A DNA stretch of 64,000 bases from Escherichia coli (GTDB taxonomy: Bacteria; Pseudomonadota; Gammaproteobacteria; Enterobacterales; Enterobacteriaceae). The translations under genes were made by a program, and so were the position numbers. Under the pieces are notes generated by a model, which worked only from the letters and a program-made list of their open reading frames with translations, was not told the origin of the DNA and searched no databases. Each line of letters starts with the position of its first letter. The first letter of the stretch is position 1. This document shows positions 3,153-49,020 of the stretch, piece after piece. The DNA lies in NCBI RefSeq assembly GCF_016026235.1, contig NZ_CP065613.1, one strand, 5' to 3'.

Positions 3153-3638
3153 TTATTCAGCAGTTGCAGGCATTTTACCTTTTGCCGCTGGACGTTCTGT
3201 CAGACGCTTCTCAAAATTAGCATTAAATTGCTTTTTCTGTTCCGGCGTCAGGATGTTGTAAATTTTGTTCTGGGTTTCCATGTGCGCCAGCATGTTAGCT
3301 TTGCGCTGTTCTTCCATTTTTGCGATCTGCGCTTCAGCTTTTGCTTTATCGAAGGTATCGCTGGCAATGATGTCATGCATTGCGCGGCGTTCTTCCAGCG
3401 GCGGACGTTTCATCTGGTCACGCTGGCCTTTCATGATTTCGCGGATCTGCTGTTTCTGCGCGTCGGTCAGGTTCAGGTCTTTGAACATCATGTCCTGATG
3501 CGGACCGAACTTGCCTTTGTGGTGCATCATCGGCTTCGCGTCAGCCGGTGCTGCGGTAGTGGTGTCTGCGGCATGGGCCAGGTTAGCCGCGCCAAGAGTC
3601 AGGGTAGAGGCAACAAACAGTGCAGTTAATTTACGCAT
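3153..3638 (-). CDS. spy: Periplasmic ATP-independent chaperone Spy
   Basis: 161-aa ORF with signal peptide MRKLTALFVASTLTLGAANLAHA and LTPEQKKQF region. Confidence 0.93.
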   Translation of the reverse strand: MRKLTALFVASTLTLGAANLAHAADTTTAAPADAKPMMHHKGKFGPHQDMMFKDLNLTDAQKQQIREIMKGQRDQMKRPPLEERRAMHDIIASDTFDKAKAEAQIAKMEEQRKANMLAHMETQNKIYNILTPEQKKQFNANFEKRLTERPAAKGKMPATAE

Positions 3639-21728: not shown

Positions 21729-21737
21729 GTTGTAAAT

Positions 21738-21829
21738 GCCTGATGGCGCTACGCTTATCAGGCCTACAAATGGGCACAATTCATTGCAGTTACGCTCTAA
21801 TGTAGGCCGGGCAAGCGCAGCGCCCCCGG
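21738..21829. repeat. REP pair (BIME) downstream of gdhA
   Basis: gcctgatggcgctacgcttatcaggcctac and gtaggccgggcaagcgcagcgcccccggc in inverted orientation. Confidence 0.6.
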
Positions 21830-21844
21830 CAAAATTTCAGGCGT

Positions 21845-42566: not shown

Positions 42567-42600
42567 AAAAAGAGCGACTTCGGTCGCTCTTTTTTTTACC
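42567..42600 (+). terminator. gapA intrinsic terminator
   Basis: agagcgac-ttcg-gtcgctct stem followed by T8. Confidence 0.85.
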
Positions 42601-44451: not shown

Positions 44452-44477
44452 AAAACAGGGCGTGACGCCCTGTTTTT
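44452..44477 (-). terminator. Intrinsic terminator downstream of mipA
   Basis: cagggcgtgacgccctg stem with flanking T-runs. Confidence 0.6.
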
Positions 44478-45689: not shown

Positions 45690-47624
45690 ATGAATATATT
45701 CGATCACTATCGCCAGCGATATGAAGCTGCCAAGGACGAAGAGTTCACACTGCAGGAGTTTCTTACCACTTGTCGGCAAGATCGCAGTGCTTATGCCAAC
45801 GCGGCTGAGCGGCTATTGATGGCTATCGGTGAGCCTGTCATGGTCGATACAGCCCAGGAACCCAGACTTTCTCGACTCTTTTCTAACCGGGTCATTGCAC
45901 GTTATCCGGCATTTGAAGAGTTTTACGGCATGGAAGACGCGATTGAACAGATTGTCTCTTATCTGAAACACGCGGCTCAGGGGCTGGAAGAGAAGAAACA
46001 AATCCTGTATCTGCTGGGGCCTGTGGGTGGGGGTAAATCATCGCTTGCTGAGCGACTGAAATCATTAATGCAGCTCGTACCGATTTATGTATTGAGCGCC
46101 AACGGTGAGCGTAGCCCGGTCAACGATCATCCGTTCTGTCTTTTCAATCCGCAGGAAGATGCTCAGATTCTGGAAAAAGAGTATGGCATTCCTCGCCGTT
46201 ATCTCGGCACCATCATGTCGCCGTGGGCGGCAAAACGTCTGCATGAATTTGGTGGCGATATTACTAAGTTCCGGGTAGTGAAGGTCTGGCCGTCCATTCT
46301 GCAACAAATTGCTATCGCCAAAACAGAGCCCGGTGATGAGAACAACCAGGACATCTCCGCGCTGGTAGGGAAAGTCGATATTCGTAAACTCGAACACTAC
46401 GCGCAGAATGACCCAGACGCCTATGGCTATTCCGGCGCACTGTGCCGCGCCAACCAGGGGATCATGGAATTCGTTGAGATGTTTAAAGCACCGATTAAAG
46501 TGCTGCATCCCTTGTTAACCGCCACTCAGGAAGGTAACTACAACGGGACGGAAGGTATCTCCGCCCTGCCGTTCAACGGGATTATTCTCGCCCACTCGAA
46601 CGAGTCCGAATGGGTCACTTTCCGTAATAACAAAAACAACGAAGCCTTCCTCGATCGTGTTTACATCGTGAAGGTGCCGTATTGCTTGCGCATTTCCGAA
46701 GAGATCAAAATCTACGAGAAATTGCTTAATCACAGTGAATTGACTCACGCCCCATGCGCCCCTGGCACGCTCGAAACACTGTCACGTTTTTCCATTCTTT
46801 CGCGCCTGAAAGAGCCAGAAAACTCCAGCATTTATTCAAAGATGCGGGTTTATGATGGCGAAAGTCTGAAAGACACCGATCCCAAAGCCAAGTCGTATCA
46901 GGAATATCGTGACTACGCCGGTGTCGATGAAGGGATGAACGGTCTGTCGACGCGTTTTGCGTTTAAGATCCTCTCCCGCGTGTTCAACTTCGATCATGTA
47001 GAAGTGGCAGCAAACCCGGTCCATCTGTTCTACGTCCTAGAACAGCAGATCGAGCGCGAGCAGTTCCCACAAGAGCAGGCAGAACGCTATCTGGAGTTCC
47101 TGAAAGGTTATCTGATCCCGAAATATGCCGAGTTTATTGGCAAAGAGATCCAGACGGCCTACCTTGAATCCTATTCCGAATATGGGCAAAACATTTTCGA
47201 CCGTTATGTTACCTACGCGGATTTCTGGATTCAGGATCAGGAGTATCGCGATCCGGATACCGGGCAGCTGTTTGACCGCGAGTCTCTTAACGCCGAGCTG
47301 GAGAAAATCGAGAAACCGGCGGGGATCAGTAATCCAAAAGATTTCCGCAACGAGATTGTTAACTTCGTACTGCGCGCCAGAGCCAATAACAGCGGACGCA
47401 ATCCGAACTGGACCAGCTATGAAAAACTGCGCACGGTTATCGAGAAGAAAATGTTCTCCAATACCGAGGAGCTGTTGCCGGTTATCTCGTTTAACGCCAA
47501 AACGTCAACCGACGAGCAGAAGAAACACGACGACTTTGTCGACCGTATGATGGAAAAAGGCTACACCCGTAAACAGGTGCGTTTACTGTGCGAATGGTAT
47601 TTGCGCGTACGTAAATCGTCTTAA
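45690..47624 (+). CDS. yeaG: PrkA-family serine protein kinase
   Basis: 644-aa ORF with Walker A GPVGGGKSS. Confidence 0.9.
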   Translation: MNIFDHYRQRYEAAKDEEFTLQEFLTTCRQDRSAYANAAERLLMAIGEPVMVDTAQEPRLSRLFSNRVIARYPAFEEFYGMEDAIEQIVSYLKHAAQGLEEKKQILYLLGPVGGGKSSLAERLKSLMQLVPIYVLSANGERSPVNDHPFCLFNPQEDAQILEKEYGIPRRYLGTIMSPWAAKRLHEFGGDITKFRVVKVWPSILQQIAIAKTEPGDENNQDISALVGKVDIRKLEHYAQNDPDAYGYSGALCRANQGIMEFVEMFKAPIKVLHPLLTATQEGNYNGTEGISALPFNGIILAHSNESEWVTFRNNKNNEAFLDRVYIVKVPYCLRISEEIKIYEKLLNHSELTHAPCAPGTLETLSRFSILSRLKEPENSSIYSKMRVYDGESLKDTDPKAKSYQEYRDYAGVDEGMNGLSTRFAFKILSRVFNFDHVEVAANPVHLFYVLEQQIEREQFPQEQAERYLEFLKGYLIPKYAEFIGKEIQTAYLESYSEYGQNIFDRYVTYADFWIQDQEYRDPDTGQLFDRESLNAELEKIEKPAGISNPKDFRNEIVNFVLRARANNSGRNPNWTSYEKLRTVIEKKMFSNTEELLPVISFNAKTSTDEQKKHDDFVDRMMEKGYTRKQVRLLCEWYLRVRKSS

Positions 47625-47630
47625 CAACCC

Positions 47631-47655
47631 TGGCCCGGTACACATGCTACCGGGC
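47631..47655 (+). other. Stem-loop in the yeaG-yeaH intergenic region
   Basis: ggcccggta-cacatgc-taccgggcc, perfect 9-bp arms, no T-run. Confidence 0.4.
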
Positions 47656-47724
47656 CTACAACGACAGCGAACCGTGGGCCAGAGAAATGGCAACACAGGC
47701 GTAGCATACAGTTGGCAAATGTAG

Positions 47725-49020
<1,296 letters not shown>

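Follow-up and report, generated by a model that had tools for sequence, protein, structure and literature searches.

REPs are GC-rich extragenic palindromes of the Y, Z1 and Z2 types, tagged by GTAG, mobilised by TnpA_REP/RAYT and arranged in inverted pairs as BIMEs. They are reported to bind DNA gyrase and other DNA-binding proteins. Newbury and colleagues are said to have reported in 1987 that a REP in malE-malF stabilises the upstream cistron. The element REP325 has two effects in yjdMN, stabilising the gene that precedes it and lowering expression of the gene that follows, the latter as a partially Rho-dependent attenuator; tandem gene pairs with a REP are upstream-biased in the same study, and stabilisation of the upstream RNA by REPs is not uniform (Harris et al. 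2026, bioRxiv 10.64898/2026.03.23.713779). A related class of structures is found at the ends of terminator-less E. coli transcripts, which end just 3′ of stable stem-loops that have no U-tract and that shield the RNA against PNPase and RNase II (Dar and Sorek 2018, PMC6061677). In the account of Liang et al. (2015) given in PMC12306157, REPs at most 15 nt from a stop codon are reported to stall terminating ribosomes.

The products of yeaGH form a conserved kinase system of stress and nitrogen starvation, and changes in its dosage influence both survival and regrowth (McQuail 2024; Figueira 2015). The two genes are usually regarded as a single transcriptional unit. Here we describe the intergenic spacer of this operon, which holds a REP-derived hairpin marking the end of a yeaG-only RNA, together with a predicted pairing site for SdsR. 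The analysis was carried out on a 64-kb stretch of E. coli DNA, hereafter the window, and on orthologous loci in relatives. Features are collected in Table 1.

Table 1. Features of the yeaG-yeaH locus, covariance-model matches in the window, and comparison spacers.
Feature	Position	Strand	Basis or detail
yeaG CDS, protein kinase YeaG, 644 aa	45690..47624	+	ORF list, RefSeq annotation of matching E. coli genomes
yeaG stop codon TAA	47622-47624	+	ORF list
Stem-loop, truncated REP / palindromic unit	47632..47656	+	sequence, fold, covariance model, orthologous REPs
CTAC at the palindrome foot (GTAG on the opposite strand), REP family signature	47656..47659	+	sequence, model R1
Mapped RNA 3′ end	47661..47662	+	K-12 Term-seq, Adams et al. 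2021, PMC7815308, Supplementary file 1
Eroded remnant of inverted partner REP, GTGGGCCAGAGAAA/TGGC	47674..47691	-	alignments with relatives
Conserved block CAGTTGGCAAATGTAG 5′ of yeaH, SdsR-complementary (about nt 17-33)	47709..47724	+	conservation, duplex, RIL-seq
yeaH CDS, 427 aa	47737..49020	+	ORF list; own Shine-Dalgarno sequence GGGGAG at 47728-47733
R1 match, rank 1: canonical REP 3′ of gdhA	21736-21768	+	39 bits, E 5.5e-8
R1 match, rank 2: canonical REP 3′ of gdhA	21801-21832	-	27 bits, E 7e-5
R1 match, rank 3: yeaG hairpin	47631-47660	+	25.7 bits, E 1.7e-4
Comparison spacers			L027, L030, L033 Yersinia; L029 Serratia; L053-L081 Vibrio, Shewanella, Alteromonas

Geometry and fold of the stem-loop

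The spacer between yeaG and yeaH is 112 nt long and untranslated, and the hairpin it contains is thus extragenic, lying between both genes. The element comprises 25 nt, with arms GGCCCGGTA (47632-47640) and TACCGGGCC (47648-47656) forming nine perfect pairs around a 7-nt loop, CACATGC (47641-47647). The stop codon of yeaG ends at 47624, and a gap of 7 nt, CAACCCT, leads to the first base of the stem. An earlier note on this DNA had described the same sequence, its perfect 9-bp stem and its 7-bp distance from the stop, all of which stand; the element is, however, placed one base to the right of the positions 47631-47655 given there. Strain K-12 differs from the window in this segment by a single C-to-T change in the loop.

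Folding of the RNA, which had been proposed as a check, bears out the structure. The 41-nt segment around the hairpin folds with a free energy of -18.0 kcal/mol, against -8.4 +/- 2.1 kcal/mol for dinucleotide shuffles (z = -4.54), and none of 200 shuffles was equally stable. When at most three mismatches are allowed, the hairpin pattern occurs once in the window, where 0.02 occurrences are expected. It is also the sole perfect hairpin in the window with at least 9 bp and at least seven G:C pairs, a class of which Markov simulation predicts 0.27 per 64 kb.

The sequence 3′ of the stem, TACAACGACA, carries one T among its first eight bases, as expected from the earlier remark that no T-run follows. 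No U-rich tract of about 7-8 nt follows the stem directly, the tail reading UACAACGA; an A-tract upstream is absent too, and a terminator scan of the window did not call the hairpin. Owing to the missing U-tract, it is not a canonical intrinsic terminator. Elsewhere in the window, a perfect hairpin at 42567-42594, AAAAAGAGCGAC-TTCG-GTCGCTCTTTTT, is flanked by A and T runs about 20 nt past gapA; it looks like a bidirectional intrinsic terminator, and Adams et al. (PMC7815308) list its sequence among their 3′ ends. A 12-bp palindrome, AAAACAGGGCGT/ACGCCCTGTTTT, occurs at 44452-44476. The sole Rfam hit near the yeaG hairpin, to RydC on the minus strand, scored 19.7 bits against a gathering threshold of 48 (E 3.8), which we regard as noise.

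Ancestry of the hairpin

At the orthologous position, at least eight genera carry a hairpin of the form GCCCGG(T/C)(G/A)GCGC..GC(T)T(A/G)CCGGGCCTAC, among them Pseudescherichia, Leclercia, Pluralibacter, Phytobacter, Superficieibacter, Enterobacter and others. A covariance model, R1, was constructed from eight non-Escherichia orthologues only, and the window was searched with filters off. The two best matches are the canonical REPs that lie 3′ of gdhA, and the third is the yeaG hairpin (Table 1), which scores 25.7 bits in the plus orientation against 16.1 bits in the minus orientation. In the alignment, nine apical positions of the model correspond to 6 nt of the yeaG hairpin, which makes it a shortened copy. 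The two gdhA matches constitute a canonical BIME between gdhA and ynjI, GCCTGATGGCGCTACGCTTATCAGGCCTAC (21736-21768, plus strand) and the inverted GCCGGGGGCGCTGCGCTTGCCCGGCCTAC (21801-21832, minus strand).

Further signatures of the family are found at the yeaG hairpin. At 25 nt it falls within the 20-40 nt or so of GC-rich REP palindromes, the canonical REPs of the window measuring 32-33 nt; it has the GTAG/CTAC foot, an extragenic position and a match to the consensus. The canonical REP at 21736-21768 finishes, on its 3′ side, in the same nine bases, GGCCTACAA, that form the foot of the hairpin. Its exact sequence occurs once per genome, and the parent consensus is dispersed: at blastn sensitivity, the orthologue REP consensus is found at a median of 4 and a maximum of 11 places per E. 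coli genome, all of them outside annotated features. Megaplasmids of Enterobacter and Citrobacter have 13-19 copies, and one Klebsiella record has at least 40. The parent family is repetitive, and the yeaG derivative is single-copy. The K-12 RefSeq feature table lists nothing in the yeaG-yeaH spacer. This silence is uninformative because the table has no REP features at all; even the BIME between gdhA and ynjI is unlisted.

Downstream of the hairpin, we found the remnant of an inverted partner. Several genera have an inverted GTAGGCCGGATAAGCG..GCATCCGGC after the REP hairpin and so show the layout of a REP pair; the E. coli remnant can be aligned with GTAGGCCGGATAAGCG..GCGCATCCGGC, which is intact in relatives. 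In both E. coli and E. albertii about 10-11 nt of this partner have been deleted and the rest is mutated; strain 23CRST010 has a further 4-nt deletion in the decayed copy. R1 finds the partner in four other records (L002, L010, L011 and L014); its search for the partner in K-12 and in the window recognised none, so that neither shows the intact inverted half of a BIME. Taken together, the orthologous REPs, the R1 match, the shared GGCCTACAA foot and the eroded partner identify the hairpin, as judged from sequence comparison, as an apically shortened REP and the surviving half of a decayed REP pair, and the yeaG-yeaH site as a relic BIME and not an intact one. The earlier note had missed this ancestry.

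Conservation of the stem

The hairpin is fixed in E. coli. Of 5426 complete E. coli genomes, 5424 have a single copy of the 47-nt segment that starts at the stop codon and extends 10 nt beyond the stem, allowing two mismatches at most. The window sequence itself is found in 2193 of them; the others depart from it at one or two positions, in most cases through the loop change of K-12. Rare variants in the stem were also retrieved, one turning a G-C pair into a G.U wobble and one changing the innermost pair. Among the 5424 RefSeq E. coli genomes carrying the locus, no allele falls below 93% identity to the window. Conservation within the species is weak evidence for the hairpin as such, since alleles diverge by only about 4% over the spacer as a whole.

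Within Escherichia, the two inner pairs are U-A and A-U in E. coli and G.U and G-C in the lineage of record L002; E. albertii differs again, and the flanks are unchanged throughout. The E. albertii hairpin reaches -18.2 kcal/mol on the sense strand and only -8.0 kcal/mol on the antisense strand, a sense-only stability which suggests that constraint acts on the RNA of the sense strand. Record L002, labelled Escherichia coli SCPM-O-B-8794, probably belongs to a cryptic Escherichia lineage and not to E. coli in the strict sense; its locus (3400-3523) has a 122-nt spacer in which the hairpin apex is a different one, GGCCCGGGGCGCATACCTCCGGGCC, and the partner REP is intact.

In an alignment of 15 Enterobacteriaceae, pairing is seen in 85.6% of cells and, once the partners are slid, in no more than 48%; the covariation score of 0.237 compares with 0.142 in shuffles, 0 of 500 of which reach it. 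The outer six pairs are invariant in this set, and the inner helix shows double changes. Among orthologues, loop length and inner stem sequence vary freely while pairing is kept. The stem is thus retained in relatives through compensatory and G.U changes, where the earlier note had named its absence from relatives as one of its refuting conditions. Part of the covariation could reflect replacement by other REP copies and not selection in place.

The spacer in other lineages

To survey the site more broadly, we took yeaG-yeaH junctions from 80 species and extracted their spacers; chromosomal orthologues of Salmonella and Klebsiella lie outside this set. Spacer lengths form two groups, one of 13-36 nt and free of hairpins, the other of 43-220 nt and almost always with a strong hairpin (-13 to -42 kcal/mol). 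In the 22 short spacers no hairpin was found, and outside Enterobacterales the spacer is often just 13-36 nt long. Nearly all of the 59 spacers of at least 40 nt have a strong hairpin, with a median fold z of -2.7 and 40 of the 59 below -2. The spacers of Enterobacteriaceae, of 63-202 nt, have a GC-rich hairpin at their start, and REP-type stems in this family begin about 7-11 nt past the yeaG stop. When only the single most stable hairpin of each spacer is taken, several loci yield a different, larger fold, at distances of 1-42 nt.

Strong hairpins of unrelated sequence occupy the spacers of Yersinia, Serratia, Pantoea, Edwardsiella, Vibrio, Shewanella and Alteromonas, and no Rfam family matched the yeaG-yeaH spacers of relatives. 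The Yersinia stems, of 20-23 bp, look like a separate palindromic repeat family, and a few spacers, such as L038, L040 and L062, have T-rich tails like those of intrinsic terminators. In Citrobacter, the 202-nt spacer (L003, 3455-3585, and L007; in part also Phytobacter, L013) contains a structured insert of about 115 nt, ...GTGAATCCCAGGAGCGTACATAAGTACGTGACTGGGGTGAGCG..., which replaces the partner REP. Copies of this insert are dispersed between genes, at a median of 12 per E. coli genome, and we take it to resemble ERIC/IRU. The spacer is thus a landing site for selfish repeats, ERIC-like in Citrobacter, which makes an origin of the hairpin as a by-product plausible. The recurrence of hairpins in this spacer could stem from repeat landings or from convergent selection for uncoupling the two cistrons.

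RNA 3′ end and transcript levels

Published Term-seq data place an RNA 3′ end at the hairpin. Converting coordinates (K-12 position = window position + 1821218), the dominant 'primary' 3′ end of yeaG at 1868879 in LB at OD 2.0 (mean 1211 reads) and the end at 1868880 in M63 at OD 0.4 (mean 762 reads) fall 5-6 nt past the stem under two growth conditions, stationary phase and minimal medium; the table has no yeaG 3′-end entry for LB at OD 0.4 (Adams et al. 2021, PMC7815308). The RNA ends in ...CCGGGCCUACAA(C), with reads (about 760-1200) that are modest beside those of many further 3′ ends listed there. A stable stem-loop that has no U-tract therefore stands just 5′ of a mapped 3′ end, the arrangement that marks protective stem-loops.

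Transcript levels of the two genes are unequal, since the DESeq2-type base means in the RNA-seq data of McQuail et al. (2024) are 5327.6 for yeaG and 1791.6 for yeaH. After our own length correction (1935 and 1284 nt), these base means give a yeaG:yeaH ratio of about 2.0 per nucleotide in this one study, which could have other causes, such as 5′-to-3′ decay gradients. Equal levels, the other result that the earlier note had counted as adverse, were not what we found. The 3′ end 5-6 nt past the stem and the ratio of about 2:1 lend support to its suggestion of an element that serves RNA processing or stability, or that attenuates in part.

At about position 48994, near the end of yeaH, an antisense Rho-dependent 3′ region is recorded (K-12 1870212, minus strand; Adams et al. 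2021, PMC7815308), which implies antisense transcription entering from the cdgI side.

An SdsR-complementary block upstream of yeaH

The block CAGTTGGCAAATGTAG lies outside the hairpin in the same spacer, and is conserved through Enterobacterales, including spacers of only 34-36 nt (TTGGCAA...GGGGGA). With SdsR nt 17-33 or so (CUGCAUUAAUGCCAACU), it is predicted to form a duplex of -20.9 kcal/mol, against -13.6 +/- 3.2 kcal/mol for shuffles, 11 of 500 of which are as good. The duplex was computed on short windows. RIL-seq detected sdsR:::yeaG.yeaH.IGT chimeras at N- and N-24, and the validated SdsR site of the same study, in the yeaG 5′ UTR, is distinct from the spacer block (McQuail et al. 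2024). The complementarity and the chimeras suggest that yeaH has an SdsR site of its own, apart from that in the yeaG 5′ UTR. A sigma-54 promoter in TTGGCAAATGCA was considered by eye and set aside, the GG-to-GC spacing being about 7 nt and not the 10 nt of the -24/-12 consensus; pairing with SdsR accounts better for this sigma-54-like block. No sigma-70 promoter for yeaH was found in the spacer. Given the hairpin and the SdsR site, YeaG and YeaH need not be made in a fixed ratio.

Discussion

We consider it reasonably probable that the hairpin blocks 3′-to-5′ exonucleases in the yeaGH mRNA, giving rise to a stable yeaG-only RNA, and that it possibly acts as a weak attenuator as well. Upon transcription of yeaGH, the sense strand would fold into a stem-loop of -18 kcal/mol, 7 nt past the yeaG stop. 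A 3′ end further downstream could come from an endonuclease cutting the 112-nt spacer, or from termination inside or beyond yeaH; starting there, PNPase or RNase II would trim the RNA 3′-to-5′ and stall a few nucleotides from the stem. The outcome would be a stable yeaG-only mRNA ending in ...CCGGGCCUACAA-3′, with yeaG message exceeding yeaH message. We infer that it is such an exonuclease block, and not termination at the hairpin, that creates the 3′ end, and that the effect may be selected.

Several other accounts of the same observations have to be weighed. Partial attenuation, in which polymerase stops at or after the hairpin, either without a U-tract or through Rho acting on the 112 nt of untranslated spacer, so that only a fraction reaches yeaH, would explain both the 3′ end just past the stem and the yeaG:yeaH ratio of about 2:1. 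It has a precedent in the partially Rho-dependent REP325, and SdsR pairing at the yeaH initiation region could uncouple translation and thereby favour Rho. We nonetheless judge it unlikely: without a U-tract the hairpin is no canonical intrinsic terminator; the spacer 3′ of it is G-rich, with a C/G ratio of 0.68-0.73 (0.9-1.0 in early yeaH), the opposite of the C-rich, G-poor composition of a rut site and hence an argument against one there; and Adams et al. list no Rho region on the sense strand of yeaG, in exponential LB, where the operon is nearly silent. Attenuation would be compatible with an exonuclease block, as REPs have been shown to do both. The hairpin could also brake translation, the terminating ribosome stalling at it and being rescued by tmRNA, with less YeaG as the result. 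Its distance of 7 nt from the stop is inside the reported 15-nt range, and the REP-type stems of Enterobacteriaceae keep a similar distance of about 7-11 nt; but stalling alone would leave the mapped RNA 3′ end unexplained, and YeaG is readily detected under starvation, which together make this account quite improbable. Still less can be said for a site acting at the DNA level, be it an operator for a dimeric regulator, a REP site of the gyrase/IHF/HU type or a substrate of TnpA_REP. Although the perfect 9-7-9 palindrome and the protein binding reported for REPs would suit it, loop length and inner stem vary among orthologues while pairing is kept, G.U-type changes leave just the sense strand foldable, an RNA 3′ end maps to the hairpin, and the plus strand shows no promoter-like site close by, so that we hold this explanation to be very improbable.

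Two further readings concern selection. As a neutral relic, the hairpin would be a leftover of a REP or BIME in a permissive spacer, its pairing preserved by short divergence time and the 3′ end and transcript ratio being unselected side effects. Such an origin would agree with the decay of the partner REP, the presence of unrelated palindromes in other lineages and of an ERIC-like repeat in Citrobacter, the absence of hairpins from taxa with 13-36-nt spacers, and the low variation of the whole spacer within E. coli. However, the proximal stem has stayed perfect or wobble-paired while the adjoining partner erodes, the inner two pairs differ among Escherichia species and still pair between unchanged flanks, E. 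albertii keeps the stability on the sense strand alone, and spacers of at least 40 nt have a median fold z of -2.7 across unrelated sequences; we therefore lean against neutrality and give it a low probability. At the other extreme, the half-BIME may be a selected insulator, in which SdsR silences yeaH, cleavage or Rho termination follows, and decay halts at the hairpin, so that YeaG:YeaH becomes adjustable. We offer this as speculation that is doubtful as it stands. If it were true, the unrelated hairpins in Yersinia, Serratia, Pantoea, Vibrio, Shewanella and Alteromonas would represent convergent selection and not repeated selfish landings.

Under the exonuclease block that we favour, the hairpin is an ordinary, previously unremarked member of a well-known class of mRNA-end hairpins. 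Its 3′ end was already present in a published supplementary table, and the class of mechanism is decades old and found in textbooks, so that the result is not surprising; the main gain is a better annotation of the yeaGH locus. With one BIME half kept and the other decayed, the site also offers a clean natural case for the model of REPs as stabilisers or attenuators.

Relation to known systems

The yeaG hairpin resembles intrinsic terminators in its GC-rich stem and in an energy within the range of terminator hairpins; it differs from them in having neither a U-tract nor an upstream A-tract, and in being passed over by the terminator scan. In both the absence of a U-tract and the position just 5′ of a steady-state 3′ end, it agrees with the protective 3′ stem-loops of Dar and Sorek (2018). 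With the stop-proximal REPs of Liang, Rudd and Deutscher (2015), as these are described in PMC12306157, it shares a distance of at most 15 nt from the stop codon, and it departs from them as a truncated REP.

Among repeats, the closest relatives are REPs and BIMEs, with which the hairpin has in common its extragenic position, its GC-rich palindrome and its CTAC foot. It shares its last nine bases with the Z2-like canonical REP of the window, is the positional homologue of the REPs of sister genera, whose covariance model recognises it, and, like a BIME member, adjoins the remnant of an inverted partner. Unlike a typical REP, it is 25 nt long and not about 30-35 nt, its exact sequence is single-copy and its partner is eroded; it has also lost the apical GGCGC..GCGC and any G.T pair or bulge, leaving a perfect 9-bp stem. 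As with REP325 in yjdMN and the REPs of malE-malF, it lies between co-directional genes of an operon whose RNA is upstream-biased. The effects differ in size, more than 100-fold in REP325 constructs against a roughly 2-fold RNA ratio at the yeaG hairpin.
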